Origin: a virus
Taxonomy: Duplodnaviria > Caudoviricetes
Length of the DNA: 64,000 nt
Strand: one strand, 5' to 3'
IMG/VR virus record: IMGVR_UViG_3300028805_000037
Span: 224,001 to 288,000 of that record
Shown piece after piece: positions 1,573 through 22,093 of this stretch; positions within the stretch are counted from its first letter, which is position 1; each line of letters starts with the position of its first letter. The position numbers were made by a program, and so were the translations under genes. The notes under the pieces were generated by a model, which was not told the DNA's origin, did no database searches, and was given only the letters and a program-made list of their open reading frames with translations.

Positions 1573-1669
1573 TTTTTTAATTTTGATTTAATTTTTAATG
1601 AATTTTGACATATTTTGTGAAAATTTTATATATTATATTATTATATTTAATTTATTTAAGGAGAATATA

Positions 1670-4600
1670 ATGTTTAAATGGAAGCAACCTTTATCTGAAG
1701 AAATTTTTAAAAAGAAATATATGATTAATGAAGGAGATAAAGATGTTGAAACAATAATACAAAATATATCAAAAGAAATATCATCAGTAGAAAAAACAAA
1801 AGAAAAACAACAATTATGGCAAGAATTATTTTATACAGAAATAATTAATCAAAGATTTATTCCAGCTGGAAGAATATTAGCGCATGCTAGACCAAATTCA
1901 AAGCAAAAAACATATATAAATTGTTATACAGTAGGTATAGAAGATAGTTTAAATGGAATATATGATACAATTAAAGAAATGGCTTTAATTGCTCAATCAT
2001 CTGGTGGTAGTGGATTAAATATATCAAATATAAGGCCCGAAGGTGCAATTTTATCACGTGGAGGAACAGCTTCAGGACCTTTATCATTTATGAAAGTTAT
2101 AAATGAATCTGCAAATACAATTTGTGTTGGCGGCGCTAGAAGAAGTGCTACAATTATAATATTAAATGTAGATCATCCAGATATTGAAAAATTTATTACT
2201 TGTAAACATGGGGATGAAAATAAAGCATATCAATTTATGAATATTTCAGTTGGTATAACTGATGAATTTATGAATGCAGTAGAACAAGATTTAAATTGGG
2301 ATCTTAAATTTGATGGTAAAATTTATAAAACAGTAAAAGCAAAAGATTTATATAATTTAATAATTGAAAATAGTTTTAAATATGCTGAACCAGGTGTTTT
2401 AAATTTATCAGCAATAAATAAAGAAAATAATGGTTATTATATGTATAATATTAATGAGTGTAATCCATGTTTCACTGGTGAAACAATGATTGCAGTAGCT
2501 GATGGTAGAAATGCAGTTTCAATAAAACAATTAGCTGATGAAAATAAAGAGTTTTTAATATATTCAACAAAATATAAAATGAAAAAATGGAATAGAACTC
2601 CAGAAATAAAAAAGGCAAAAGCTTTTAAAACTGGAGAAAAAGAAGTTTTAACTATTGTTTTATCAAATGGAAGTAGTTTTGAATGTACGCCAGATCATTT
2701 ATTAGCTTTACCTAATGGAACTTTTATACAAGCTAAAGATTCATTAGGTGAAGTATTACAAAAATTTTATACATTTTCAAATAAAAATAATAATAAAAGT
2801 TATAGACATATTAATAGTATAACAAATTGTCATTCAAAACAATGTAGATTAATTTATAATTATTATAATAAATTAGAACAAGGTACTGTTATACATCATA
2901 AAGATCATAATTCAATAAATGATTTAATTGATAATTTACAAGCTTTAACTAAAGAAGAGCATGATAAATTAACTGGTGAAGAACATAAAGGAAACAATAA
3001 TCCAATATTTAAAACAAATATGGAATGGACAAAGTGGGATTGGGCAAGAAAAAATAGATTTGCAAATGCTCGCAAATATAATTGGACAGATGAAAGATTA
3101 AAAAAAGAATTAGAAATTTATGATAGAGAAAATCCTGAACCAACAAGAGATATAACTGATAAAAATATATATATGAATCAAGATGTACAAGTAATTGATG
3201 TTATTCGTAATGGAAAAGTTGCTCCTGTATATGATATAACTGTTGAAGATAATCATAATTTTTATATTATTACTAAAACTGATGATGATAAATATTTAAA
3301 TTGTTCAGGCGTATTAGTTCATAATTGTGGTGAAACATCAATGCCAATATATAATGTCTGCGATTTGGGCTCAATTAAATTATCAACATTTGTTGAAAAT
3401 CCATTTACAAATGAAGCAAAAATTGATTGGGAAAGATTAATAAAATCAATACATATTGGGGTAAGATTTTTAGATAATGTATTAGATGCTACTCAATTAC
3501 CATTAGATAAAGTTAAACATAATGTAAAAAAAGAACGTAGAATTGGGTTAGGTTTTACAGCTTATGCTGATATGTTAATAAAAATGAAAATACAATATGG
3601 ATCTGAAGAAGCAATTCAATTAACAAAAAAGTTAGCAAAAATATTTAGAGATGAAAGTTATAAAGCATCAATTGAATTAGCAAAAGAAAAAGGAAGCTTT
3701 CCACATTTAGATAAAGAAAAATATTTACAAAGTAATTTTATTAAAAGATTACCTGAAGAAATTAAAGAAAATATTAAAAAATATGGTATTCGTAATATTA
3801 ATTTAAATTGTGTAGCTCCAACTGGAACTATAAGTTTAAGTTATGGTAATAATTGTAGTTCTGGAATAGAACCAGTATTCGCATTAAGTTATGATAGAAA
3901 AGTAAGACAAAAAGATGAAACTTTTATTACACAAACTGTTTGTGATGAAGCATTTTTAGATTGGCAAAATCAATTTAATAATGAAAAAGAAATACCAAAA
4001 TATTTTACAACAGTAGCAGATTTAACTGCAGAGCAACATATAGCAATACAATCATTATGGCAAAAATATATAGATAGTAGTATAAGTAAAACTGTAAATT
4101 TACCTTCTGGAACAACAATAGAAAAATATAAAGATTTATTTATGTTAGCATATAAATCTGGTTGTAAAGGTATAACATTTTTTAATCCAGATGGAGCATT
4201 AGCACCAGTTTTATCAGTTAAAAAAGAAAATGTTAAACAGCAAGAAGATATAAAAGAAAATCAAGCTCCAAAACGGCCACAAGATTTACCATGTGATATT
4301 TATCAAATAGTTGTAGATCATAAACCAGTTCTTGTATTACTTGGCAAATTAAATAGCAAAATATATGAAATGTTTTTAGATTATAATTTTGATGAAAATG
4401 GTGATAAAAAAATAGATGTAATGAAAGCTAAAGAAGGTATAATACGGAAAATTAAATCTAGCCAATATGATTTAATTATTAAAACTGATGAAGGTAAAGA
4501 ATTAACAATTATTAAAAATATAGCTGATACTTTTGATGAAATGGCTGGGATGATAAGTAGATTTGTTTCAATGTCATTAAGATATGGAGTTCCATACCAA

Positions 4601-4798
4601 TTTATTATTAATCAAATGCAAAAAACAAAAAGTTTTAATAGTTTTACAAAGATTGTATCAAGAGTATTAAAAAAATATATTAAAGATGGTGAAAAAGTTA
4701 AAACATCTGATAATAAATGTCCAGAATGTAATACAGAATTAGTATTTCAAAGTGGTTGTATAATATGTCCATCTTGTGGCTTTTCAAAATGTAATTAA
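1670..4798 (+). CDS. nrdJ: Class II (AdoCbl-dependent) ribonucleotide reductase with intein and C-terminal Zn ribbon
   Basis: FIPAGRIL, GGGSG, GGARRSA, HPDIEKFI, NP[intein]CGE, CDLGSI, RRIGLG, APTGTIS, SSGIEP, SISKTVN, CKGIT; C-terminal CPEC..CPSC; start moved to ATG 1670 behind AAGGAG. Confidence 0.95.
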   Translation: MFKWKQPLSEEIFKKKYMINEGDKDVETIIQNISKEISSVEKTKEKQQLWQELFYTEIINQRFIPAGRILAHARPNSKQKTYINCYTVGIEDSLNGIYDTIKEMALIAQSSGGSGLNISNIRPEGAILSRGGTASGPLSFMKVINESANTICVGGARRSATIIILNVDHPDIEKFITCKHGDENKAYQFMNISVGITDEFMNAVEQDLNWDLKFDGKIYKTVKAKDLYNLIIENSFKYAEPGVLNLSAINKENNGYYMYNINECNPCFTGETMIAVADGRNAVSIKQLADENKEFLIYSTKYKMKKWNRTPEIKKAKAFKTGEKEVLTIVLSNGSSFECTPDHLLALPNGTFIQAKDSLGEVLQKFYTFSNKNNNKSYRHINSITNCHSKQCRLIYNYYNKLEQGTVIHHKDHNSINDLIDNLQALTKEEHDKLTGEEHKGNNNPIFKTNMEWTKWDWARKNRFANARKYNWTDERLKKELEIYDRENPEPTRDITDKNIYMNQDVQVIDVIRNGKVAPVYDITVEDNHNFYIITKTDDDKYLNCSGVLVHNCGETSMPIYNVCDLGSIKLSTFVENPFTNEAKIDWERLIKSIHIGVRFLDNVLDATQLPLDKVKHNVKKERRIGLGFTAYADMLIKMKIQYGSEEAIQLTKKLAKIFRDESYKASIELAKEKGSFPHLDKEKYLQSNFIKRLPEEIKENIKKYGIRNINLNCVAPTGTISLSYGNNCSSGIEPVFALSYDRKVRQKDETFITQTVCDEAFLDWQNQFNNEKEIPKYFTTVADLTAEQHIAIQSLWQKYIDSSISKTVNLPSGTTIEKYKDLFMLAYKSGCKGITFFNPDGALAPVLSVKKENVKQQEDIKENQAPKRPQDLPCDIYQIVVDHKPVLVLLGKLNSKIYEMFLDYNFDENGDKKIDVMKAKEGIIRKIKSSQYDLIIKTDEGKELTIIKNIADTFDEMAGMISRFVSMSLRYGVPYQFIINQMQKTKSFNSFTKIVSRVLKKYIKDGEKVKTSDNKCPECNTELVFQSGCIICPSCGFSKCN
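2468..3325 (+). mobile_element. Intein (286 aa) with HNH-type homing endonuclease, inserted at the NPC active-site motif of NrdJ
   Basis: Begins CFTGET, block B CTPDH, block F VYDITVEDNHNF, ends VHN before Cys+1; internal HHKDHNSINDLIDNL...EEH. Confidence 0.92.
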
Positions 4799-8585: not shown

Positions 8586-9902
8586 ATGATTTTATTAACT
8601 TTATTAGAAAAGATTCAAAATTTTGTTGATGAAGTAAATCAAAGTAATAGTGGAACTTATAAAAAACAAGTTCTACAAAAATATTTTGATTATGATTTTA
8701 AAAGATTTTTTAGTTATATTTTTGATTATGATAAACAATTTAATATAACATCAAAATCAATATTAAAATATGAAAATAGTAAACAATTAGAATTATTAGA
8801 TACATATAAATATGATTATTTATTTGATTTATTAGATGCATTAAATTCTAGAAAAGTAACTGGGCATAATGCAATTAAAACTTGTTTAGATTTTATTAAT
8901 GATAATATTAAATATAAAGATTTAATATTAAAAATTATAGATAAAAAATTAGATATTGGAATAAGTGATACTACTATTAATAAATTATATCCTAGTACTG
9001 TAAAAGAATTTAATGTAGCATTAGCTGGAAAATGGTCTGAAAAATTTCCATTAGATGATACATATTTTATAAGTAGAAAATTAGATGGAGTAAGATGTAT
9101 ATGTTTTTATAATCATCCTTATAATATTCAATTTTATTCAAGACAAGGTAAAGAATTTACAACATTAAATGTATTAAAAGAAAAACTAAGTCAATGTAAG
9201 AATATTCCAAATAACACAGTTTTTGATGGTGAAATTTGTATTGTAGATGAAAATGGAAATGAAGATTTTCAAGGTATAATTAAAGAAATAAAAAGAAAAG
9301 ATTATACAATTAAAAATCCATGTTATATGATATTTGATGTTTTAACTAAAGATGAGTTTGAAATGAAAGAGCAATCACAATGGTTAAAATGGAGAATTGG
9401 AAATTTAACATCTTTATTTAATGATAATGAATTATTAAGAACAAATAACTTTAAACAAGTAACACAATATCAGTATACTTCAGATACATTACAAATGTTA
9501 AAAGAAAAGGCTAATAAAGAAGGTTGGGAAGGTTTAATGTTTAGAAAAAATGTATCATATAAAGGAACAAGAAGTAATGATTTATTAAAATATAAAGAAT
9601 TTAATGAAAATGATTATAAAGTTATAGATGTTGAAGTTAGTGAAGTTCAAGATGTTGTTAATGGTATTGCTACAAAAATTCCTGCAATTGGAGCTTTAAT
9701 AATAGAACATAAAGGTAATAAAGTTCATGTTGGAACAGGTTTATCATTGGAACAAAGAAAAAGATGGTTAGAGCATCCTGAAGAAATAGTTGGTTCTATG
9801 ATAAATGTAAAATATTTTGAAGAATCATTAAGTCAAGATGGAAGTTACTCATTAAGATTTCCAGTTTTAAAAGGTGTATATGGAAAACAGAGAGATATTT
9901 AA
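8586..9902 (+). CDS. ATP-dependent DNA ligase
   Basis: KLDGVR, FDGE, EGLM, LLKYK, VGTG, SLRFP. Confidence 0.93.
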   Translation: MILLTLLEKIQNFVDEVNQSNSGTYKKQVLQKYFDYDFKRFFSYIFDYDKQFNITSKSILKYENSKQLELLDTYKYDYLFDLLDALNSRKVTGHNAIKTCLDFINDNIKYKDLILKIIDKKLDIGISDTTINKLYPSTVKEFNVALAGKWSEKFPLDDTYFISRKLDGVRCICFYNHPYNIQFYSRQGKEFTTLNVLKEKLSQCKNIPNNTVFDGEICIVDENGNEDFQGIIKEIKRKDYTIKNPCYMIFDVLTKDEFEMKEQSQWLKWRIGNLTSLFNDNELLRTNNFKQVTQYQYTSDTLQMLKEKANKEGWEGLMFRKNVSYKGTRSNDLLKYKEFNENDYKVIDVEVSEVQDVVNGIATKIPAIGALIIEHKGNKVHVGTGLSLEQRKRWLEHPEEIVGSMINVKYFEESLSQDGSYSLRFPVLKGVYGKQRDI

Positions 9903-11227: not shown

Positions 11228-11683
11228 ATGAGCTTTGTAGTAGAAGAACAATATCTAACATTAAAATTTCAAAAATTGACAGAAAATGCAAAAACCCCAG
11301 TAAGAGGAACTAAATTTTCTTCTGGTTTAGATGTTTTTTCAACTGGAGATTATGATATTCCAGCAAGAGGAGATGTTTTAATTCCATTAGATTTAAGATT
11401 TGAAATTCCTATAGGTTGGGATTTATCAGTATATAATAAATCAGGTATGTCAACAAAATTAAAATTAGATAAAGGTGCAGAATTAATTGATTCAGATTAT
11501 CGTGGTAATTGTCATGTGCATTTATTTAATAATTCAGATAATGTTATACATATAGAAAAAGGGCAAAAAATAGCGCAATTAGTAATGAGAAAAGTTTGGT
11601 TAGGAAATGTTGAAGAAGTAAAAGAAATATCTACTGATACAAGTAGAGGTCAAGGTGGTTTTGGATCAACTGGAAAATTTTAA
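11228..11683 (+). CDS. dut: Trimeric dUTPase with atypical motifs 2 and 3
   Basis: SGLD, NKSG, IDSDYRG, KIAQL, RGQGGFGSTG. Confidence 0.9.
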   Translation: MSFVVEEQYLTLKFQKLTENAKTPVRGTKFSSGLDVFSTGDYDIPARGDVLIPLDLRFEIPIGWDLSVYNKSGMSTKLKLDKGAELIDSDYRGNCHVHLFNNSDNVIHIEKGQKIAQLVMRKVWLGNVEEVKEISTDTSRGQGGFGSTGKF

Positions 11684-12272: not shown

Positions 12273-12836
12273 ATGAATAACAATATATTGTGGTTAGATA
12301 CTGAAACAACTGGAATTGATCCGAATAAAAATTTTTTAATTCAGTTATCTTATATAAGTACATTAAATAATAATATAAAATTTGATAATGATTTATATAT
12401 GAGACCACAATATATTGAAAAATTTGAAATAGAACAAAGTGCACTTGATAAAAATAAAATAACAGTAGAACAAATTAAAAATTTTGAATTAGAAGATAAA
12501 CAAATAAAAATTTTTCTTAATGATTTAACATCAAGTTGTGGAAAATTTTATTTAGCGGGTTATAATGTAAAATTTGATATAGAGTTTTTAACAGCAATTT
12601 TTGCAAGACAAAATCTAAATTTACATTATTATTTTAATTATTTATATCTTGATGTAATGCAATTAGTTATAAATTTAAAATTAGCAGGAAAAATCAATCC
12701 AGAAAATTGTAAATTACAAACAGTTTTACAATATTTTAATCTTATAGAAGATATAAGTGTTTTGCATAATGCAAAACAAGATATAGTATGTACTAAAATG
12801 CTATATGATTTTCTTATAAATAAATTCAATATTTAA
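12273..12836 (+). CDS. DEDDh 3'-5' exonuclease (DnaQ-like)
   Basis: LDTETTG, GYNVKFD, HNAKQD. Confidence 0.88.
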   Translation: MNNNILWLDTETTGIDPNKNFLIQLSYISTLNNNIKFDNDLYMRPQYIEKFEIEQSALDKNKITVEQIKNFELEDKQIKIFLNDLTSSCGKFYLAGYNVKFDIEFLTAIFARQNLNLHYYFNYLYLDVMQLVINLKLAGKINPENCKLQTVLQYFNLIEDISVLHNAKQDIVCTKMLYDFLINKFNI

Positions 12837-12838
12837 AA

Positions 12839-13339
12839 ATGAATAAAATAATTATAATAGAAGGTATATCACGTGTAGGTAAAACTACATTATGTAATAA
12901 AATTAATAAATTATATAATATACCAATATATAAACATAATAATAAAATAATAAATTATTCTGAAATGAATGATAAAAATGAAGTAGAAAAAATGATGGTT
13001 ATGTTAGACGTATATAGAACTATACCATCAAATATAATATTTGATAGATTTCATTTTTCAAATGCAGTTTATGGTATTTTATTAAGAAATTATGATGTTA
13101 ATGAATCTATTAATAATATTAAAAAGATTGAAAAATATATTAAATCTGTGAATTCTAGATGTATTTTAATTAAAGTTAGTCCTACAGATATTAAAGAATC
13201 TTCAAGACAATATGGTAGAGATTTAACAGAATTTGAAAATTATTTTCAAAAATTATATAATATATCAATATTAGAAAAATATAATTGTAATTATAATAAT
13301 CAAGATCAATTAATCAAAAAATTAAATTTAGGAGTTTAA
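12839..13339 (+). CDS. dNMP kinase (thymidylate-kinase fold), probable hm-dCMP kinase
   Basis: P-loop EGISRVGKTT, FDRFHFSNAVY; first gene of the modification cluster. Confidence 0.8.
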   Translation: MNKIIIIEGISRVGKTTLCNKINKLYNIPIYKHNNKIINYSEMNDKNEVEKMMVMLDVYRTIPSNIIFDRFHFSNAVYGILLRNYDVNESINNIKKIEKYIKSVNSRCILIKVSPTDIKESSRQYGRDLTEFENYFQKLYNISILEKYNCNYNNQDQLIKKLNLGV

Positions 13340-14440
13340 ATGAATATTTTATATTTTTATTGGGGATTTCTTGGTGATGTAAAATATAAACCAAATGGAG
13401 AATTAGGTAGTTTTCCTGATGGTAATGCATTTTATTCTTGGTCAATAATACATGAATTACAAAAAAGAAATAATGATGTATATATTATTGAAGATAGAGA
13501 TAAAATAGGTTATGAAAAGTTTAATAAAGATTTATTTCATTCATTTGCTCAGAATAAAAGATGTGAATGTTATAGAAAATTAAAGATTTTTAATAAAAAT
13601 GTAAAAATAAATTATGCTATAATTGAATGGAGATGGCCAATACCTGGAAGAAATACATTAGATGTTAAAGGTACTAATATTTATCAACCAGATTTAGAAT
13701 ATATGCAAAATTGTATTGATTATTGTAATAATAATAAAATACCATTTATTATTTTTGATTTAGATTATAAATTACAATATGAAGATATAAAGAAGTATGA
13801 TATCAAATATATAATTGAATTAGGTAATAAATGGAATAAACTTTATGGTGATATTAAAGCTACAAGAGTAGAGATACCATTTGATTTTTCTTGTATTAAT
13901 GAAAAACCAATAAAAATGGAAAATTTTGAAAATGATTGTATTTATATTGGTTCACGTTATGAAAGAGATTGGTGTATGCATTATTTACCAAAAGGAACAG
14001 TTGTACATGGTAATTGGTTAGAACCAGGTCATGGAGATCCAGTAAATGAATTTCCAAATTTAGTATTTAAAAAGAGGTTATCAGCATCTGAAATTTTTGA
14101 ACCATATAATAATAGTATAGCAACTGTATTATTAGCTAAAAAAGAATATTGTAGTAAACAATTTATGACAGCACGTATACAAGAAGCAATTTTTTATGGA
14201 ACAGTACCATTATTTATTAGAGAATATGGTAAAGAATTAATTAATAAATATGCTGGAAAATATAGTAACATTTTAGTAGTAGCTTCAGATGAAGATGTTA
14301 AAATGAAAATAGATATATTTAAAACACGTCCAGAATTAAGAAAACAAATAATAATGTATTTACGTAAATATTTAAGATTTATGGATTGCAAATTTTTTGT
14401 TGATGATATACAAGAGTTAATAGGAGTTCAGAATGTATGA
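13340..14440 (+). CDS. GT-B DNA glycosyltransferase, T4 beta-glucosyltransferase-like
   Basis: IYIGSRYER / VHGN / NSIATVLLAKKEY..FMTARIQEA parallel T4 BGT IYGGSFR / FFGN / SQAIAALIIGDKNY..FITLRVWET (recalled from memory). Confidence 0.7.
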   Translation: MNILYFYWGFLGDVKYKPNGELGSFPDGNAFYSWSIIHELQKRNNDVYIIEDRDKIGYEKFNKDLFHSFAQNKRCECYRKLKIFNKNVKINYAIIEWRWPIPGRNTLDVKGTNIYQPDLEYMQNCIDYCNNNKIPFIIFDLDYKLQYEDIKKYDIKYIIELGNKWNKLYGDIKATRVEIPFDFSCINEKPIKMENFENDCIYIGSRYERDWCMHYLPKGTVVHGNWLEPGHGDPVNEFPNLVFKKRLSASEIFEPYNNSIATVLLAKKEYCSKQFMTARIQEAIFYGTVPLFIREYGKELINKYAGKYSNILVVASDEDVKMKIDIFKTRPELRKQIIMYLRKYLRFMDCKFFVDDIQELIGVQNV

Positions 14441-16490
14441 TTATCTTATAGTTGGTTCAGGATTATATGGCAGTTTTGCAGCATTTTTGTTAACACAAAA
14501 AGGCAAAAAATGTTTAGTTATTGATAAACGAAATCATATAGGTGGTAATGTATATAATGAAAGAAAAGATGATATAGATATACATATTTATGGACCACAT
14601 ATATTTCATACATCAAATAAAGAATTGTGGAATTTTTTAAATAAATATATTAAATTTAATAATTTTATAAATCAACCATTAGCTATATATAAAAATGAAA
14701 TTTATAATTTACCATTTAATATGAATACATTTTCAAAAATGTGGAATATACAAACTCCAAAACAAGTACAAGAAATTATTTATAAACAAAAGCAAGAAAT
14801 AATAAATGAACCAAAAAATCTTGAAGAACAAGCAATAAGTTTAGTTGGTAGAGATATTTATGAAAAATTAATTAAAGGTTATACTGAAAAACAATGGGGA
14901 AAATCTTGCATAGAATTAGATAAGAATATAATAAAAAGATTACCAGTAAGATATACTTATGATAATAATTATTTTAATGATATATATCAAGGTATACCAA
15001 TTAATGGTTATAATGAACTAATAAATATATTTTTAAGTAAATGTGATGTGAAATTAAATATTAAATTTGATTATAGTAATAAAAAAGAATTAGAGAAATT
15101 AGCAAAAAAAATTATATATACTGGTTCACTTGATGAATTATATAATTATCAACTTGGTAAATTAGAATATAGGTCTTTAAAATTTGATACTTATTCTTTA
15201 CAAGAAGTTAATTATCAAGGTAATGCTGTAATTAATTATACTGAATATGAAATACCTTATACCAGAATTATAGAACATAAACATTTTAATAAATATCAGA
15301 AAGGTTATATAAATCCTATAACATATTTAACAAAAGAATATCCTATTAAATTTGAAGAAGGTTTAGAAAGATTTTATCCAATAAATAATGAAATAAATAA
15401 TCAATTATATCAAAAATATGTTGATTTAATTAATCAAGATAAAAAGTATATTTTTGGTGGTAGATTAGCAGAATATAAATATTATGATATGGATAAAGTT
15501 TTAATTAAATGTAAAGAAGATATAGATAAAATTTTAAAAATTAAAGATAACATTAAAATTAAAACTAGAGTTAAAAAAGAAAAAACAAATGTTATTAGTA
15601 ATGAAGAAATTTTAGGCTATTTAAAACAAACACAAGATATAAATACTTTAGAATATCCTGTATGTATACCAACTGTTCATAATAGAGAAAAATCAGTATT
15701 AAAATTATTAGATAATTTTGGTAATACAAAAATATTTTTATTTATTATACCTAATGAAGTTCAATTATATAATTATTTAAATAAATCAAATATTATTAAA
15801 GTTATATTACCAGAAGAATATGTTGGTTCAATACAAAAAGCAAGAAAATATATACAAGAATATATGGATAAACAAAATATTGATTTATATCATTGTATAG
15901 ATGATGATGTTGTTGGTTTTATGTTAATTAATAAAACAATAGATTGTAGTGTTTCTCAAGGTTTAAGAGTTCTAGAGTTATTTTCAAAAACTATTGAATT
16001 TTCATCATTAAGTTATTGTTTCAATGATATAAGTTGTAAATTTTGGAATGGTGAAAAATATGGTGAAGTTTTAACAGCAGTTCAATATTTATTTAATAAT
16101 AAAAAATTAAAAGAATTAAATTTAAGATTTACTGGACAATCTGATTTAAATGAAGATTTAGAATTTACTGTAAATTCATTGTTATATACTAATCTTCCAA
16201 CAAAAGTTTTAAGATGGGGATTAATAAAACAAGCTTATGCAGCTGGAGGTAAAGATTCAATAGCATCATCAAATAATTTACATTTATTATATCAAACAAA
16301 TAATTATTTAAAATTTGGTAATTATTTAAAATTTCATAAAGATATACGTGGTTTTAGAACAAATATTAATTATAGTAAAATTAAAAAAGATAAAAAGAAT
16401 AATAACATTAAAATAGAATATGATGAAAATTTATATAATATGTGTATAAGCAGAAATTATGAAGGATTAATTAAATATGTACAACAATAA
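14433..16490 (+). CDS. glf: Fusion of UDP-galactopyranose mutase (N-terminal ~370 aa) and a GT-A DNA glycosyltransferase (T2/T6 glucosyl-hmC glucosyltransferase / TAGT-like)
   Basis: GSGLYG, HIGGN, YGPHIFHT, YTEKQWG, RLPVR, YQGIP, TRIIEHKH, GRLAEYKYYDMD; from ~15654 VCIPT..R, GSIQKARKYI, IDDD, EDLEF. Confidence 0.88.
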   Translation: MYDYLIVGSGLYGSFAAFLLTQKGKKCLVIDKRNHIGGNVYNERKDDIDIHIYGPHIFHTSNKELWNFLNKYIKFNNFINQPLAIYKNEIYNLPFNMNTFSKMWNIQTPKQVQEIIYKQKQEIINEPKNLEEQAISLVGRDIYEKLIKGYTEKQWGKSCIELDKNIIKRLPVRYTYDNNYFNDIYQGIPINGYNELINIFLSKCDVKLNIKFDYSNKKELEKLAKKIIYTGSLDELYNYQLGKLEYRSLKFDTYSLQEVNYQGNAVINYTEYEIPYTRIIEHKHFNKYQKGYINPITYLTKEYPIKFEEGLERFYPINNEINNQLYQKYVDLINQDKKYIFGGRLAEYKYYDMDKVLIKCKEDIDKILKIKDNIKIKTRVKKEKTNVISNEEILGYLKQTQDINTLEYPVCIPTVHNREKSVLKLLDNFGNTKIFLFIIPNEVQLYNYLNKSNIIKVILPEEYVGSIQKARKYIQEYMDKQNIDLYHCIDDDVVGFMLINKTIDCSVSQGLRVLELFSKTIEFSSLSYCFNDISCKFWNGEKYGEVLTAVQYLFNNKKLKELNLRFTGQSDLNEDLEFTVNSLLYTNLPTKVLRWGLIKQAYAAGGKDSIASSNNLHLLYQTNNYLKFGNYLKFHKDIRGFRTNINYSKIKKDKKNNNIKIEYDENLYNMCISRNYEGLIKYVQQ

Positions 16491-16920
16491 GCAAATAAGA
16501 GAATTTAATTTTTTTATGAAATCAGCTTTATTGGCAGCACAAAATTCTTATGCAATTAGAAATAAAGTTGGTGCCGTATTTGTTAGAGATGGAAGAATTA
16601 TAAGTAGTGGTTGGAACGGTCAGCCTAAAGGTTTTGATAATTGTTGTGAAGAAAAATTAGAAGATGGTTCATTAAAAACATTACCAACAGTTATACATGC
16701 TGAAGCAAATGCGTTATGTTTTTGTGCAAAAAATGGTATATCATTAAAAGATTGTGATGCCTTTATTACATTAAGTCCTTGTATGAATTGTGCATTATTA
16801 TTAATACAAGCTGGTATTAAAAATGTTTATTATTATGAAGATTATAGAGATAATGGTGGTATTAAATTATTAAATAATGTCGGAATTAAATGTGAAAATA
16901 TTAAGGAGTATATTAAATGA
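16477..16920 (+). CDS. dCMP deaminase
   Basis: KVGAV, GWNG, HAEAN, SPCMNC. Confidence 0.92.
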   Translation: MYNNKQIREFNFFMKSALLAAQNSYAIRNKVGAVFVRDGRIISSGWNGQPKGFDNCCEEKLEDGSLKTLPTVIHAEANALCFCAKNGISLKDCDAFITLSPCMNCALLLIQAGIKNVYYYEDYRDNGGIKLLNNVGIKCENIKEYIK

Positions 16921-17651
16921 AAAATGAAGAAATAATATTACCATATTTTAAAGAATTAAAAAGAAAAAAAGATAATGGTAAATTTAAAATTGATAAAACT
17001 GGAGTAAAAACAGTTGAAATTAGAAATTGCCATATAGATGGATTAAATCCGTTACAACCAATATTAGAATTTCCTGGAAGAAAAACTCCAGAAAATTATG
17101 TAAAAAAAGAATCTAATTGGTATAATAGTTGTTCATTAAATATTAATGGTTATGTTGATGATGTAAAAATTTGGAAACAAGTTAGTGATAATGATGGTTT
17201 TGTAAATAGTAATTATGGTTGGTGTATATATTCAAAAGAAAATTATAAACAATATAATCATGTTTTAAAAGAATTAATTAATAATAATTGTTCTAGAAGA
17301 GCATCAATGATTTATAATAGACCATCAATGTGGATTGAATATAATCAAGATGGTATGAATGAATTTATGTGTACTTATGCAGTTCAATATGATATTACAG
17401 ATAATGAATTAAATGCTATTGTATATATGCGGTCGAATGATAGTCAATATGGGTTCTTTAATGATCTAGCTTGGCAGTGTGAAGTATATATGAAATTATA
17501 TAATGATTTAAAGAAACATTATAAAGATTTACAAATAGGTGTAATAGATTGGAATTCTGGTAGTTGGCATATTTATGAAAGACATTTTGAAATGTTAGAT
17601 AAAATATGTACTTATGAGGTTAAAAATGAAGAACCAAAAATCAATAATTAA
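16917..17651 (+). CDS. dCMP hydroxymethylase (T4 gp42-like, thymidylate synthase fold)
   Basis: NSNYGW, SRRASMIYNRPSM, DGMNEFMCT, MRSNDSQYGFFNDLAWQ with Asp at the dCMP/dUMP specificity position, WHIYERHF. Confidence 0.88.
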   Translation: MKNEEIILPYFKELKRKKDNGKFKIDKTGVKTVEIRNCHIDGLNPLQPILEFPGRKTPENYVKKESNWYNSCSLNINGYVDDVKIWKQVSDNDGFVNSNYGWCIYSKENYKQYNHVLKELINNNCSRRASMIYNRPSMWIEYNQDGMNEFMCTYAVQYDITDNELNAIVYMRSNDSQYGFFNDLAWQCEVYMKLYNDLKKHYKDLQIGVIDWNSGSWHIYERHFEMLDKICTYEVKNEEPKINN

Positions 17652-18024: not shown

Positions 18025-19131
18025 ATGATAAATGCAAGTTTTGAACAAATTGAAAAAGTAGAAAAACATCCTAATGCAGATAAATTAGATATAATTACAG
18101 TTTCAGGTTATACAGTAGTTTCACAAAAAGATACACATAAAGTAGGGGATACTGTGTTTTTTATTCGTGAAGATAGTCAAATACTTGTTGATGAACAAAA
18201 GTTTCCTTGGCATACAGGAGTTAAAACATATTTAGGTAAAAGTGGTAGAGTTAAAACAATTAAATTAAGGGGAATATTTAGTTCGGGCATTGTATTAAAT
18301 GCCGAAAAAGTATTAGAATCATATTTTAAAAATAACGGTCTTAAACGATATACCTTAGTAAGATATGAAATAAATAAAAGGTTGGAAGATGAAAAGTTCC
18401 TTGAAGAAAATTTTGGTATTAAACATTATGTACCACCAGCAGTTGGTGCAAGTTTTGGCAATTTACAAATGATAGGAACTATACCATTTGGTATACCAAA
18501 AACAGATGAAGAAAATGTACAAAATATAGATAAATCAGAATTACCATTTGGTGAAGAAGTTTTAGTTACAAGAAAACTTGATGGTACAAGTTGTACAGTA
18601 ATATTTGATAATGATGGTAAATATCATATTTGTGGTAGGAATTATGAATATAAATTAGGTCAAGATAATATTTATGAAAGAACAACTAAACAATTAATAG
18701 ATTTAATATTAGAAATAGGTTTTTATAAACAATTAAAAGAAAATGAACATTTAGTTATACAAGGTGAGGTTGCAGGCAAAGGAATACAATCAAATAAAAT
18801 AAACAAAATTAGTCAAATAGAAGAACCAAGATTTTATATATTTAGAACAATGTTATGGAATGATAAAGATAGAACAAAAGTTGATTGGGGCAATTATGGT
18901 AGTAAATATCATTTTTTTAAAATTAGAAGACAATTAGTTGAAGAAGAATTTAGAAAAAATAAAACTAATAGTGTAGTATATTGTGTTCCTATATTAGGTA
19001 GAGAAATATTAACAGAAGAAATGGTGCAAAAATATATAAATGCACCTGCAGAAGAAGGTGAAGGCGTAGTAATTAACCACAAAAAAGGACATTTTAAGAT
19101 TAAGTCATTAGATTACATAAGTAAATTTTAG
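18025..19131 (+). CDS. RNA ligase, Rnl2/DRB0094-like, with N-terminal OB domain
   Basis: HPNADKL, PKTDEE, KLDGTS, QGEVAG.GIQ.N, EGVV, FKIKS. Confidence 0.85.
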   Translation: MINASFEQIEKVEKHPNADKLDIITVSGYTVVSQKDTHKVGDTVFFIREDSQILVDEQKFPWHTGVKTYLGKSGRVKTIKLRGIFSSGIVLNAEKVLESYFKNNGLKRYTLVRYEINKRLEDEKFLEENFGIKHYVPPAVGASFGNLQMIGTIPFGIPKTDEENVQNIDKSELPFGEEVLVTRKLDGTSCTVIFDNDGKYHICGRNYEYKLGQDNIYERTTKQLIDLILEIGFYKQLKENEHLVIQGEVAGKGIQSNKINKISQIEEPRFYIFRTMLWNDKDRTKVDWGNYGSKYHFFKIRRQLVEEEFRKNKTNSVVYCVPILGREILTEEMVQKYINAPAEEGEGVVINHKKGHFKIKSLDYISKF

Positions 19132-19152
19132 GAAAAAGGAAAAATTAAAATA

Positions 19153-19722
19153 GTGGAAAAGAAAATATTTATAATAAGTGATACTCATTTTTGGCATACA
19201 AGAATAATCAGATTTGAAAATCGTCCATTTAAATCAGTAGAAGAAATGAATGAAGAACTCATCAAAAGATGGAATTCTAAAGTGTCTAATAATGATACTG
19301 TTATTCATTTAGGTGATTTTTGTTTTGGAAATAAAGAAAAGACTCAAGATATTGCACAAAGATTAAATGGTAAGAAAATACTTATAATGGGAAATCATGA
19401 CGACTCTAGAAATGTAAAATGGTTTATAGATTGCGGCTTTGATGAAGTTTATAGGTATTCTATACTTTTTCAAAATTATTTTATTCTTTCTCATGAACCT
19501 ATTGCTTATTTAAAAGCACCATTTGTGAATCTTTATGGTCATGTTCATGGTAGTCCCAATAATCCAACATTCACTAAAAATAGTGTATGTTGTTGTGTAG
19601 AAAGATGGAATTATGCGCCTATAAATTTTACTACAATAATGAGGAATATAGAAAAATTACAAAGACAAATTGATGCAACTATGATTAACTTTGAATCTTC
19701 AGAAACAATAGAAGAACAATAA
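19153..19722 (+). CDS. Calcineurin-like phosphoesterase
   Basis: SDTHF, HLGDF, GNHD, SHEP, GHVH. Confidence 0.88.
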   Translation: MEKKIFIISDTHFWHTRIIRFENRPFKSVEEMNEELIKRWNSKVSNNDTVIHLGDFCFGNKEKTQDIAQRLNGKKILIMGNHDDSRNVKWFIDCGFDEVYRYSILFQNYFILSHEPIAYLKAPFVNLYGHVHGSPNNPTFTKNSVCCCVERWNYAPINFTTIMRNIEKLQRQIDATMINFESSETIEEQ

Positions 19723-19738
19723 ATTTAAATTTTAAAAA

Positions 19739-20020
19739 ATGAAACAAATTAATCAAACCCAATTCTATGCTAAAATTCTTTTAAAATTACATAAAATTTT
19801 ATCAATTTATGAAGGTAAAATTTTATGTAGAGAGATTTCTGAAAAAATAGAGAATGATATAAAAGAATTTTATAAACAATTAAAAATTAAATATAAAAGT
19901 ATTTTAAATATAAGATATTTAAATGAACTCATTAAACAGCCAATTCATTATAAAGTAAGATATCATACATTATTAAGTATACAGATTGATATAGATTTAA
20001 AGAGGTTATTTAAAAAATGA
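19739..20020 (+). CDS. Hypothetical protein
   Basis: ORF only. Confidence 0.45.
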   Translation: MKQINQTQFYAKILLKLHKILSIYEGKILCREISEKIENDIKEFYKQLKIKYKSILNIRYLNELIKQPIHYKVRYHTLLSIQIDIDLKRLFKK

Positions 20021-21111
20021 ATTTAGAAGTATTAGAATTTATTAATAATAATAAAAACTGGAAAGAAATTCTTGAAAAAAATCCATATAATATAAAAATT
20101 AAAGAAGAAGATAATTTTATTATATTAAATTATTCTCAAGTTGAAAGTGATTTTTCATTAAGAATAGTACAAGAATGTAGAGGATTAATTTTAGTTAAAG
20201 AAGATAATAAATATATTCCAGTATGTATTCCATTTTTTAAGTTTTTTAATTATGGTGAAAAATATGCAAGTAAAATTGATTGGAATTCAGCACAAGTTCA
20301 AGAAAAAATTGACGGTTCATTAATTAAAATATGGTTTTATAAAGATAAAATGCATATATCTACAAATAGTATGATTGATGCATTTAAAGCTACTATAGCA
20401 TTACCTACTGATAATTTTAAAACTTATGGTGATTTAGTAATATATTGTTTAAATTCATTTTATAAAATAGAAGAGTTTAATAAAGATTACACGTATATGT
20501 TTGAATTAGTTTCACCTTATACAAGAATAGTAGTTCCTTATAAAGAAATAAAATTATTTTATTTGGGACAAAGAAATAATAAAACATTTAATGAGATGAA
20601 TTTAAGAAATTTTTATAATTATGTACCTAAGTTATATAATATATCAATATTAAGTGATTGTGTAAATAATGCTAATAAATTGCCTAAAGATAAAGAAGGA
20701 TATGTAGTAGTTGATGAAAGATTTAATAGAATAAAAGTAAAATCACCTGTTTATGTAGCTATGCATCATATAAGAACAAATGTGGCAACCGAAAAATCAA
20801 TATTAGAATTGATAAGAAAAAATGAAATAGATGAATTTACAAATTATTTTCCAGAATATAAAAATGTTTCACAACAAATAAAAGATAAATATAATAATGC
20901 ATGTGCAGACATAGCAAATTGTTATTTGTTTGTTGAAATGAAAGTAAAAAATTTAAAAACAAGAAAAGAACAAGCACAACTTATAATGCAAAATTTTAAA
21001 AATTGTTCAGATTTTGCATTTAGTTATCTTGATGGAAGAGTTAAAGGAATAGAAGAATTCATTAAAAATTTGAGTTTAGAAAAATTATTGAAGCGATTGG
21101 AGAATTATTAA
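20017..21111 (+). CDS. RNA ligase, T4 Rnl1-like
   Basis: ECRGLI, KFFNYGE, EKIDGSL, FEL, EGYVV, KVKS. Confidence 0.85.
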   Translation: MNLEVLEFINNNKNWKEILEKNPYNIKIKEEDNFIILNYSQVESDFSLRIVQECRGLILVKEDNKYIPVCIPFFKFFNYGEKYASKIDWNSAQVQEKIDGSLIKIWFYKDKMHISTNSMIDAFKATIALPTDNFKTYGDLVIYCLNSFYKIEEFNKDYTYMFELVSPYTRIVVPYKEIKLFYLGQRNNKTFNEMNLRNFYNYVPKLYNISILSDCVNNANKLPKDKEGYVVVDERFNRIKVKSPVYVAMHHIRTNVATEKSILELIRKNEIDEFTNYFPEYKNVSQQIKDKYNNACADIANCYLFVEMKVKNLKTRKEQAQLIMQNFKNCSDFAFSYLDGRVKGIEEFIKNLSLEKLLKRLENY

Positions 21112-21436: not shown

Positions 21437-22093
21437 ATGGATGTAAAAATTATAGGTAATACTTATACTGATGAAGCAACTATTACTGAATATTTTGCTA
21501 AAATAGCAAGAAGATGCTATACAACTATTCCATTTATAGATATTCAAATTGATTATGAAAAAGCTAAAAAATTATTAAAAAAGATTATTGATTCTGGACA
21601 TTTATCAATTTTAGAACATTATTCATTTACATTTGCTATAGAAAACGTATCTGTAGCGCTTCTTGGACAATTAACAAGAAATAGATTAGCATCATTTACA
21701 GTTCAATCATTAAGATACAATAATATGAAAGATAGTGATATCAATGTAAGTATACCTGAAGGTATAAAATATGATGATTTAAATGAAATATATTTAAAGT
21801 CAATTAGTGAATCTTACAATAATTATAATAAACTTATAGAAAAAGGCTATAAACCAGAACAAGCTAGATATGTTCTGCCTCAAGGAATAAGAACAAATTT
21901 GATTATGACGATGAATGTAAGAGAACTTTTTCATTTCTTTGATTTAAGGTATTGTAATAGAGCAGATAATGAAATACATCAATTAGCAACTATGATCTAT
22001 TTTCTAGTAAATCAAAAAGATAATTATTTATTTAGTTTTGCAAAACATTCCTGTCAACAATGTAAAAATAAATGTGAAAAATATAAAAAATAA
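21437..22093 (+). CDS. thyX: Flavin-dependent thymidylate synthase
   Basis: GHLSILEH, RNRLASFTVQSLRY (RHRX7S variant), ARYVLP, MNVREL..FF.LR. Confidence 0.9.
   Translation: MDVKIIGNTYTDEATITEYFAKIARRCYTTIPFIDIQIDYEKAKKLLKKIIDSGHLSILEHYSFTFAIENVSVALLGQLTRNRLASFTVQSLRYNNMKDSDINVSIPEGIKYDDLNEIYLKSISESYNNYNKLIEKGYKPEQARYVLPQGIRTNLIMTMNVRELFHFFDLRYCNRADNEIHQLATMIYFLVNQKDNYLFSFAKHSCQQCKNKCEKYKK

Follow-up and report, generated by a model that had tools for sequence, protein, structure and literature searches.

By coating their cytosines with sugars, phages classically defend themselves from restriction enzymes and some CRISPR nucleases; type IV restriction enzymes, in turn, target such bases. The locus described here raises the question of whether a phage decorates its cytosine with a furanose whose donor it makes itself. 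The locus lies in the nucleotide-metabolism block of a 300,445-bp genome (98% complete) of an uncultured phage from a sheep-gut metagenome, of which we analyzed a window of 64,000 nucleotides (positions 224,001 to 288,000 of IMG/VR record IMGVR_UViG_3300028805_000037). An original prediction, made from this DNA alone, had proposed that five genes produce a galactofuranose (Galf)-decorated 5-hydroxymethylcytosine (5hmC). On balance, the sequences lead us to favor a T4-like cytosine-replacement pathway that would end in galactofuranosylation.

As predicted, the ORF list contains five abutting or overlapping genes on the plus strand (12839-13339, 13340-14440, 14433-16490, 16477-16920, and 16917-17651); the first two abut at 13339/13340 while the subsequent three junctions overlap by 8, 14, and 4 nt. 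A scan of this A+T-rich DNA for promoters and terminators gave nothing above shuffled expectation, so the operon boundaries are set by the gene overlaps only. The identical gene order was found again in the independent assemblies L042, L043, L040, L003, and L005, and the arrangement is therefore no chance juxtaposition. A megablast search of phage records with a 10-kb query returned no match. Family and structure matches bore out the proposed identities of the five products: a nucleotide kinase, a GT-B glycosyltransferase, a UDP-galactopyranose mutase (Glf) fused to a GT-A domain, a dCMP deaminase, and a dCMP hydroxymethylase.

The type of base is indicated by the last of these genes (16917-17651). 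Its product matched T4 dCMP hydroxymethylase (PDB 1b49) with an E value of 3e-53, compared to only 4.7e-10 for the best thymidylate synthase, and was 46% identical to T6 gp42 when the two were aligned. All of the key residues were kept: E60, W82, Y96, R123/R124, C148, R168-D171, D179, H216, and Y218 in T6 gp42 numbering, with C152 and D183 of the phage protein aligned to T6 C148 and D179. Asp179 of gp42 stands where ThyA has the Asn that selects dUMP. The protein also carries MRSNDSQYGFFNDLAWQ, the gp42-signature motif quoted in the original prediction, as well as FFNDLAWQ. The position of ThyA D169 separates 5-hydroxymethyl from 5-hydroxy enzymes (Lee et al. 2026, PMC13326640). Here it is occupied by D, not N, in the sequence RSND, as opposed to RSQN in the 5hodCMP synthase of phage RL38J1, a published signature (PMC13326640) that our own alignment reproduced. 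Judged by these residues, the enzyme is of the gp42 type and would convert dCMP to 5-hydroxymethyl-dCMP (5hm-dCMP) rather than make a 5-hydroxy derivative or thymidylate. It is very probable that the phage makes 5hm-dCMP.

The product of the first gene (12839-13339) is a P-loop nucleotide kinase that matched phrog_761 'thymidylate kinase' (E 1.5e-14) and, as its closest solved relative, SPbeta YorR (2axp/3kb2, E 1e-4); it matched gp214 of RL38J1 weakly (E 1.7e-4), and a homologue adjoins the gene for GT-B at 24 of the loci L003 to L029. This YorR-like kinase is predicted to phosphorylate 5hm-dCMP, beginning a series from which, we infer, the phage polymerase would incorporate 5hmC into DNA. 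The deaminase (16477-16920; Pfam dCMP_cyt_deam_1, 2e-23; phrog_174, 4e-55; PDB 4p9c, 1.7e-31; T4 Cd 1vq2, 4.9e-25) is predicted to supply dUMP to ThyX and to lower the dCMP pool. The ThyX gene itself (21437-22093, plus strand; Pfam Thy1, E 1.4e-52), already singled out in the original prediction, encodes a flavin-dependent thymidylate synthase, the predicted separate source of dTMP; the deaminase and ThyX would together provide dTMP for a genome that is 74% A+T.

A trimeric dUTPase-family enzyme (11228-11683, plus strand; matching Pfam dUTPase at E 4e-26 and DCD weakly) is encoded 5' of the cluster, as is a homologue in L042 and L043. It is possibly a dUTPase/dCTPase that feeds the dCMP/dUMP pools and might thereby help to exclude dCTP. 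The genome has only two trimeric dUTPase-family genes; phmmer found no homologue of T6 gp56 in it, and searches of the genome for MazG and dUTPase_2 found neither. Without a gp56-type dCTPase or MazG, complete replacement of cytosine is not assured, and this trimeric dUTPase-family gene is the sole candidate for the dCTPase role.

The donor is suggested by the N-terminal part of the fusion protein (residues 1 to ~368, 14433-15536). It matched Pfam GLF (E 5.5e-68, residues 145-350) and NAD_binding_8 (2.2e-19) as well as the Glf proteins of C. jejuni (PDB 4mo2, E 1e-131) and E. coli (1i8t, E 2e-128), and its N-terminus, MYDYLIVGSGL, agrees with both enzymes in the FAD-binding Rossmann motif. The mobile-loop Arg and the YTRIIEHKHF and GGRLAEYKYYDM blocks, which we take to be the substrate-binding blocks of these mutases and to hold essential residues, are identical or near-identical to those of 4mo2 and 1i8t. 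By these sequence features the domain is a canonical UDP-galactopyranose mutase, which would contract host UDP-galactopyranose (UDP-Galp) to UDP-galactofuranose (UDP-Galf). GalE was absent from the searched phage genome, so the UDP-Galp must be host-derived.

Poulin et al. reportedly found in 2010 that Glf positions 59 and 168 decide GalNAc use. In the phage protein these residues are H/K, as in E. coli Glf, and not R/R as in the C. jejuni enzyme. This pair, together with an E. coli match nearly as strong as that to C. jejuni, would speak against an alternative in which the mutase makes UDP-GalfNAc or UDP-L-Araf and the base receives GalfNAc or arabinofuranose instead of Galf. We regard that outcome as very improbable, although the C. 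jejuni protein that gave the best solved match has been employed as a UDP-GalNAc mutase (PMC3792076), arabinofuranosyl cytosine derivatives occur in phages RB69 and DLP3 (PMC13326640), and the GalE-like epimerases of relatives could take substrates beyond UDP-Glc/Gal.

The C-terminal domain of the same protein (residues ~380-685, 15570-16490) had been thought to be related to TAGT and T6 enzymes, and PHROG, Pfam, hhalign, and fold comparisons agree in assigning it to the TAGT / T6 ggt family. It matched phrog_842 'beta-glucosyl-HMC-alpha-glucosyltransferase' (E 4e-6), as did 27 of its 37 relatives; 22 of the 37 matched Pfam TAGT (PF20691), to which the domain alone gave no match at E 0.01. An hhalign comparison of the TAGT family alignment with T6 ggt gave a probability of 91% (E 1.1e-6, 176 columns). 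For the structure model (pLDDT 93), the leading BFVD matches were TAGT-domain proteins and the ggt of Klebsiella phage PKO111 while those in the PDB were the GT-A enzymes TarP, TarS, and RmlT. Searches with the domain sequence returned only noise against solved structures and, by tblastn, nothing from phage records. The motifs named in the original prediction (CIPT..R, IDDD, and ED) are present as PVCIPTVHNR, CIDDDV, and NEDLEF. In the family alignment these GT-A motifs (R44, D116-D118, and E200 in domain numbering) occupy columns that are invariant or nearly so, and the DDD lines up with that of T6 ggt. The domain is thus a predicted DNA-base glycosyltransferase whose acceptor would be 5hmC or a sugar on 5hmC. 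Its nearest stand-alone relatives (P0140-P0142) lie on short contigs with uninformative contexts.

The Glf-TAGT order occurs here and again in five other sequence variants (83-95% identical), and the fusion is therefore no assembly artefact. In L040 the order is reversed, the TAGT-Glf fusion being followed by a gene for a GalE-like epimerase. A search for more reverse-order fusions returned the known forward-order clusters only and also missed L040's own protein, so this census of fusions is incomplete. As it is fused to Glf in both orientations, the TAGT domain is coupled to the mutase, and the fusion found here would capture a thermodynamically disfavored furanose donor at its source.

The other transferase, encoded at 13340-14440, had been likened to T4 BGT. 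Our structure comparisons agreed as far as fold is concerned: the best solved folds were BGT and AGT, both of them T4 DNA glucosyltransferases, with BGT ahead of generic GT4 enzymes by only ~2 Z units and a Foldseek-aligned identity to BGT of 13-15%. Membership of the BGT family (GT63) was not seen at the sequence level, where Pfam gave a sub-threshold match to Glyco_trans_1_2 alone (E 0.0083) and a search of the PDB gave noise only. A tblastn search of phage records returned one marginal match, to a glycosyltransferase gene of an Enterococcus phage (E 2e-3). The enzyme belongs to its own nameless phage family of at least 938 proteins. In 21 independent loci, members of this family adjoin a thymidylate synthase (TS) homologue with the catalytic Cys and D at both specificity positions, and one member (P0088) is a GT-TS fusion. 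These associations suggest a likely function for a family of more than 900 cluster representatives. We consider it likely that 5hmC in the phage DNA is glycosylated by this predicted 5hmC-DNA glycosyltransferase, which is probably a user of UDP-Galf. The whole genome encodes a single GT-B and a single TAGT enzyme.

The same linkage bears on the possibility that the sugar genes glycosylate virion proteins or host surface glycans and not DNA. Glf normally serves cell-surface glycans, Streptococcus suis phages have prophage-borne glf genes, and the TAGT model is also similar to the teichoic-acid transferases TarP and TarS. However, the sugar genes form an abutting and overlapping series with those for the kinase, deaminase, and hydroxymethylase, the GT-B family is linked to dCMP-type TS homologues at the 21 loci and in the fusion, its closest solved folds are the two T4 enzymes that act on DNA, and the GT-A domain is in the TAGT / ggt family. 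A target other than DNA is therefore extremely improbable.

Which transferase would use UDP-Galf? According to the original prediction, the GT-B enzyme adds a hexosyl group and the fused GT-A domain then adds Galf. Close relatives point elsewhere. In L043 synteny is kept with GT-B and Glf, and the TAGT segment alone is missing (the segment 15522-16458 is cleanly absent). L003, L005, and the P0010 contig likewise pair GT-B with Glf, and no TAGT lies nearby; none was found in 262 kb of the L005 phage. Since these relatives keep GT-B and Glf without TAGT, GT-B is the conserved partner of Glf, and the TAGT domain looks like an optional add-on. The idea of a phage-made furanose donor for a DNA base is supported while the assignment of the fused transferase as its partner, and with it the proposed order, is not. 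Judged from gene linkage only, galactofuranose has a reasonable likelihood of being among the sugars. The Glf-linked GT-Bs form one clade (support 100/100), within which P0027/L041 is without an adjacent Glf. The majority of GT-B family members (40-50% identical) lack a neighboring Glf, and the donor therefore differs among members.

As we infer the acceptor, the donors, and the order of transfer, the GT-B enzyme would move galactofuranose onto the hydroxymethyl of DNA-borne 5hmC, and the Glf-fused TAGT-type GT-A would add a second sugar, most likely galactofuranose again. We put forward this sequence of events (GT-B first, TAGT second, Galf as donor for both) tentatively, as sequence cannot settle the order. 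The product would be DNA with mono- and di-galactofuranosyl-5hmC that resists host nucleases. The full proposal, that the phage DNA contains di-galactofuranosyl-5hmC made by two unrelated transferases on UDP-Galf with the GT-A-mutase fusion channeling a scarce donor, is more tentative still.

One alternative is that the GT-B enzyme adds glucose from host UDP-Glc to 5hmC and Glf-TAGT then adds Galf, which would give Galf-Glc-5hmC. This is unlikely, as Glf would have no consumer in the TAGT-less L043, L003, L005, and P0010 contig, and the Glf-linked GT-Bs are in a well-supported clade of their own. It would nevertheless fit with T4 BGT as the closest solved fold and with T6 ggt, the characterized TAGT relative, which is annotated as adding a second sugar to glucosyl-hmC; in addition, the Glf fusions in both orientations point to TAGT as the Galf user, and most members of the GT-B family function without any Glf. 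Another alternative is that each transferase acts on 5hmC directly, the two differing in anomeric linkage or in the sequence contexts that they modify. The T4 alpha- and beta-glucosyltransferases share one acceptor (PMC13216743), TET/JBP-linked TAGT enzymes are generally held to use 5hmC directly (family name of PF20691), and relatives can do without the TAGT domain. Although no feature of the sequence discriminates between action in parallel and in series, T6 ggt, the only biochemically named TAGT relative, extends an existing sugar, and we think parallel action distinctly unlikely.

The proposed di-galactofuranosyl pathway shares with that of the T-even phages a gp42-type hydroxymethylase, a dCMP deaminase, a nucleotide kinase, a GT-B enzyme closest in fold to BGT/AGT, a GT-A enzyme related to T6 ggt, and the logic of building the base as a nucleotide and putting the sugar on DNA. 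In contrast to the host UDP-glucose of T-even phages, however, the furanose donor here would come from a phage-encoded Glf. The GT-B enzyme falls outside the BGT family by sequence, a YorR-like kinase stands in place of gp1, gp56 dCTPase was not found in the genome, dTMP would come from ThyX, and the ggt-like domain shares a polypeptide with Glf.

The novelty that the original prediction saw in a galactofuranosylated base is not supported as it was stated. Galactosylated cytosine derivatives in RL38J1 DNA have been known since 1985, and Lee et al. 2026 proposed the Glf of this phage as the UDP-Galf source for galactosylation of 5-hydroxycytosine (PMC13326640). The galactofuranosyl idea is therefore not wholly new, but that precedent involves 5-hydroxycytosine and unrelated transferases. 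The galactosyl-glucosyl-5-hydroxycytosine pathway of RL38J1 / Pootjesviridae resembles ours in its phage Glf (41% identical), proposed to feed the base-proximal galactose on the modified cytosine (PMC13326640), in its module of kinase, GT, and TS homologue, and in a multi-sugar product. On the other hand, its base is 5-hydroxycytosine (D169N signature, RSQN) and not of the 5-hydroxymethyl type (RSND), hhalign detected no relationship between its transferase gp215 and the GT-B family (probability 0.2%), and its Glf is unlinked and unfused, whereas ours is fused to TAGT; a furanose is predicted in both systems. With D instead of N in the TS homologue, an unrelated gp215, and Glf alone in common, our phage does not belong to the RL38J1-type pathway. 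In Aeromonas phage Aes508 two orphan genes flank or adjoin Glf, and in L005 a 406-aa ORF lies 3' of it; all three were also considered as GT-B homologues, and hhalign found nothing for any of them.

The arabinofuranosyl-5-hydroxycytosine systems of RB69 and DLP3 likewise place a furanose on a C5-oxygenated cytosine by means of phage-encoded donor synthesis and successive transferases (PMC13326640). They too have a YorR-like kinase beside GT and TS genes, and DLP3 gp78 has 3kb2 as its best PDB match (PMC13326640), as does our kinase. Their sugar is a pentose on 5-hydroxycytosine while a hexose on 5hmC is predicted here, and their donor is made by an arabinose-5-P isomerase, a kinase, and a nucleotidyltransferase rather than by Glf. 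The TET/5mYOX phage clusters of Pyle et al. 2023 (bioRxiv 10.1101/2023.12.21.572611) also combine GT-A and GT-B enzymes, T4-BGT-like GT-Bs included, in building mono-, di-, and tri-saccharides on 5hmC; their 5hmC is formed post-replicatively by a methyltransferase and a TET-type enzyme, in contrast to the gp42-type enzyme here, and the text mentions neither a furanose nor a mutase.

If our proposal is true, 5hmC bearing a furanosyl hexose would have its first example here, as would the fusion of a donor synthase to a DNA glycosyltransferase. Galf-5hmC would be chemically distinct, its sugar ring being five-membered and its linkage acid-labile. To our knowledge, galactofuranose is absent from mammals. 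The pathway would also yield new DNA glycosyltransferases for 5hmC labeling and a natural mutase-transferase fusion, the latter of interest in the production and use of UDP-Galf. Among relatives in the ruminant gut, gain or loss of TAGT would toggle between mono- and di-Galf. The close relatives vary only in the presence, absence, or orientation of TAGT, in a cytidylyltransferase gene, and in GalE, a pattern that suggests rapid arms-race diversification in this environment.

Genomic evidence gives good support to the 12839-17651 operon as a DNA-modification system, with its product predicted from sequence. The five ORFs named in the original prediction are real: all lie on the + strand at the positions proposed and are packed without gaps, either abutting (13339/13340) or overlapping by 8, 14 and 4 nt. 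In order they encode a P-loop nucleotide kinase (12839-13339, 166 aa), a glycosyltransferase with a T4 BGT-like fold (GT-B, 13340-14440), a Glf-TAGT fusion protein (14433-16490), a dCMP deaminase (16477-16920) and a 244-aa match to T4 dCMP hydroxymethylase (HMase, 16917-17651).

The cluster is embedded in a nucleotide-metabolism and repair block. On the upstream side, the ribonucleotide reductase large subunit (1598-4798) contains an intein that carries an HNH endonuclease domain. Also upstream are genes for a DNA ligase (8586-9902), a member of the trimeric dUTPase family (11228-11683) and a DnaQ-like exonuclease (12273-12836). Directly downstream of the operon, two RNA ligases, one of Rnl2 type with an OB domain and one of T4 Rnl1 type, form an RNA-repair-like set (18025-21111) together with a metallophosphoesterase, and ThyX lies at 21437-22093. 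The window spans positions 224001-288000 of a single viral contig of 300,445 bp. This contig has a CheckV completeness of 98% and a G+C content of 26% overall and ~21% around the modification genes. It originates from a sheep-gut metagenome assembly, and partial matches to it are present in gut sequencing runs of cattle and sheep across several studies. Its last 100 bases are repeated at start positions 46-145 (genome G000), a sign that the assembly is either closed into a circle or terminally redundant, although its record carries a linear label.

The logic of the operon is that of the T-even pathway, with the gp42-type HMase and Cd (dCMP deaminase) being clear homologues. HMase matched T4 dCMP hydroxymethylase with an E-value of 3e-53, compared to just 4.7e-10 for the best thymidylate synthase (TS), and it is 46% identical to T6 gp42. 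It keeps all of the residues that we checked (in gp42 numbering E60, W82, Y96, R123/R124, the catalytic C148, R168-S169-N170-D171, D179, H216 and Y218). The gp42-type D179 stands in place of the Asn that gives thymidylate synthases their dUMP specificity. When the ThyA-D169 position is occupied by Asn, TS homologues produce 5-hydroxy-dCMP instead (Lee et al. 2026, PMC13326640). This position is Asp in HMase (RSND), and on this basis we predict that its product is 5-hydroxymethyl-dCMP. The enzyme of phage RL38J1, aligned alongside HMase, gave its published RSQN signature, which validates the alignment of TS homologues.

The kinase belongs to phrog_761 and its closest solved relative is SPbeta YorR, which is likewise the best solved match for the kinase of the DLP3 arabinosyl-cytosine cluster (Lee et al. 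2026, PMC13326640). Profile and structure-database sequence matches identify the 16477-16920 product as a typical phage dCMP deaminase. Neither a gp56-type dCTPase nor MazG was found in the genome. The only candidate for dCTP exclusion is the dUTPase-family gene 1.2 kb upstream of the cluster, which is syntenic in the related loci L042 and L043. A second trimeric dUTPase-family domain lies outside the window within a 273-aa ORF (G000:C1:298894-299277), and one of these two paralogues might act as a dCTPase.

GT-B had no usable sequence match in Pfam or PDB; its family comprises 938 or more cluster representatives from metagenomes, all unnamed. A confident AlphaFold model (pLDDT 94, pTM 0.91), built from a 58-sequence alignment, gave T4 beta-glucosyltransferase (BGT) as its top Foldseek match (E 1e-9) with T4 alpha-glucosyltransferase a close second. 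As modelled, the fold is BGT-like by a modest margin, and GT-B is not a member of the BGT family at the sequence level. Gene context is a stronger argument for its function than fold. Among the IMG/VR and assembly loci recovered, 24 have a YorR-like kinase next to the family gene and 21 have a TS homologue there. These TS homologues all have the catalytic Cys and Asp at both specificity positions, and by these residues they are predicted to be dCMP-directed enzymes of the 5-hydroxymethyl type. In P0088, GT and TS are fused directly within a single protein. The likeliest reading of the GT-B family is that of a widespread glycosyltransferase of 5hmC DNA.

The P0088 gene (L001:8001-9842), in which a GT-B family domain is joined to a dCMP-type TS homologue, has genes for MazG and DNA polymerase III alpha as neighbors. 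In more distant family clusters there are radical-SAM/SPASM enzymes and second transferases with a weak likeness to GT47 (L008:6147-7001, L017:5024-5887, L009:5904-7001 and L008:8926-10101), and the L017 cluster also encodes a divergent Glf-like protein. It seems that many different pathways to 5hmC glycans are built around this family.

The fusion protein begins with a Glf domain (residues 1 to ~368; Pfam GLF, 5.5e-68) that matched the Campylobacter jejuni enzyme 4mo2 at 1e-131 and Escherichia coli Glf at 2e-128. Its FAD-binding N-terminus and substrate-binding blocks are near-identical to those of both solved enzymes, as expected of a canonical UDP-galactopyranose mutase. The TAGT domain (residues ~380-685) has 44 relatives in the representatives library searched, nearly all of them free-standing proteins of ~300 aa, the closest being 36-37% identical. 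When 37 of these relatives were aligned, 27 matched PHROG 842 (“beta-glucosyl-HMC-alpha-glucosyltransferase”) and 22 matched Pfam TAGT. The family profile matched T6 ggt with 91% probability and with the DDD and ED motifs in register, and all three TAGT-domain motifs of the original prediction fell on conserved alignment columns. The domain was modelled as a GT-A fold (pLDDT 93), with TAGT-domain proteins and Klebsiella phage ggt as its best viral matches and TarP, TarS and RmlT as its best PDB matches.

Six arrangements of the module were recovered among related phages, including that of the window (GT-B identity 100%). L042 (83%) has the window order with a small cytidylyltransferase-like gene before GT-B. 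L043 (76%) has the window synteny at ~80% DNA identity and a free-standing Glf; the gap in its DNA alignment, window 15522-16458, is exactly the TAGT domain. L040 (71%) has HMase, kinase, GT-B, a reversed fusion with TAGT N-terminal and Glf C-terminal (L040:7112-9163, equivalent to window 14433-16490), and then a GalE-like epimerase gene. Compared to the window fusion, the TAGT part is the better conserved (83% identical, against 64% for Glf). The P0010 contig (70%) has HMase, kinase, a cytidylyltransferase-like gene, GT-B, free Glf and a GalE-like gene, with no TAGT found within 6 kb. L003 and L005 (58-59%) have HMase, kinase, GT-B and free Glf, and no TAGT was found in 262 kb of the L005 phage. 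In a maximum-likelihood tree the Glf-linked GT-B sequences form one clade (100/100 support), in six of whose seven members Glf adjoins GT-B; members farther off have no Glf or have other accessory genes.

From these arrangements and the GT-B tree we conclude that Glf and TAGT, fused twice in opposite orders, are functionally coupled, and that GT-B plus Glf is the conserved self-sufficient unit to which TAGT is an optional addition. The original prediction, in which GT-B glycosylates hmC while Glf feeds UDP-Galf to the fused transferase, holds in outline as a modification pathway; however, its assignment of steps is probably incorrect since GT-B and Glf persist without TAGT in relatives. In the simplest model, GT-B would transfer Galf onto 5hmC and TAGT would then attach a second Galf; we infer both this order and the exact donors. 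The GalE-like genes of two relatives fit a supply line from UDP-Glc through UDP-Galp to UDP-Galf. No epimerase was found in the genome of the window phage, which must therefore depend on host UDP-Galp.

In three close relatives (L042:4068-4490, L043:3615-4031 and the P0010 contig) the kinase gene is separated from GT-B by the cytidylyltransferase-fold gene (CTP_transf_like, 138-142 aa), which is absent at the window junction 13339/13340. Its product may serve to activate an additional substituent such as a CDP-linked group.

A phage mutase that feeds DNA modification is an idea already in print: RL38J1 DNA has been known since 1985 to carry galactose-proximal hexosyl chains on 5-hydroxycytosine, and its Glf was proposed to supply UDP-Galf (Lee et al. 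2026, PMC13326640). RL38J1 differs from the window phage in its base, in a first transferase without detectable homology to the GT-B family and in its unlinked Glf. Pyle et al. (2023, bioRxiv 10.1101/2023.12.21.572611) described TET-type clusters that decorate 5hmC with glycans of hexose, HexNAc and heptose, with neither furanose nor mutase mentioned. In the literature searched we found no report of galactofuranosyl-5hmC or of Glf fused to a DNA glycosyltransferase.

Among cultured phages, Glf-like genes are present in Erwinia phage FBB1 and, together with a gp42 homologue, in T4-like Aeromonas phages. In one of the latter, Aes508 (L034, NC_019543.1, 4992-8771), the Glf-like gene (30% identity) is followed by two orphan proteins of ~350 aa each. 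Neither matched Pfam or resembled the GT-B family, and they may be unrecognised DNA glycosyltransferases.
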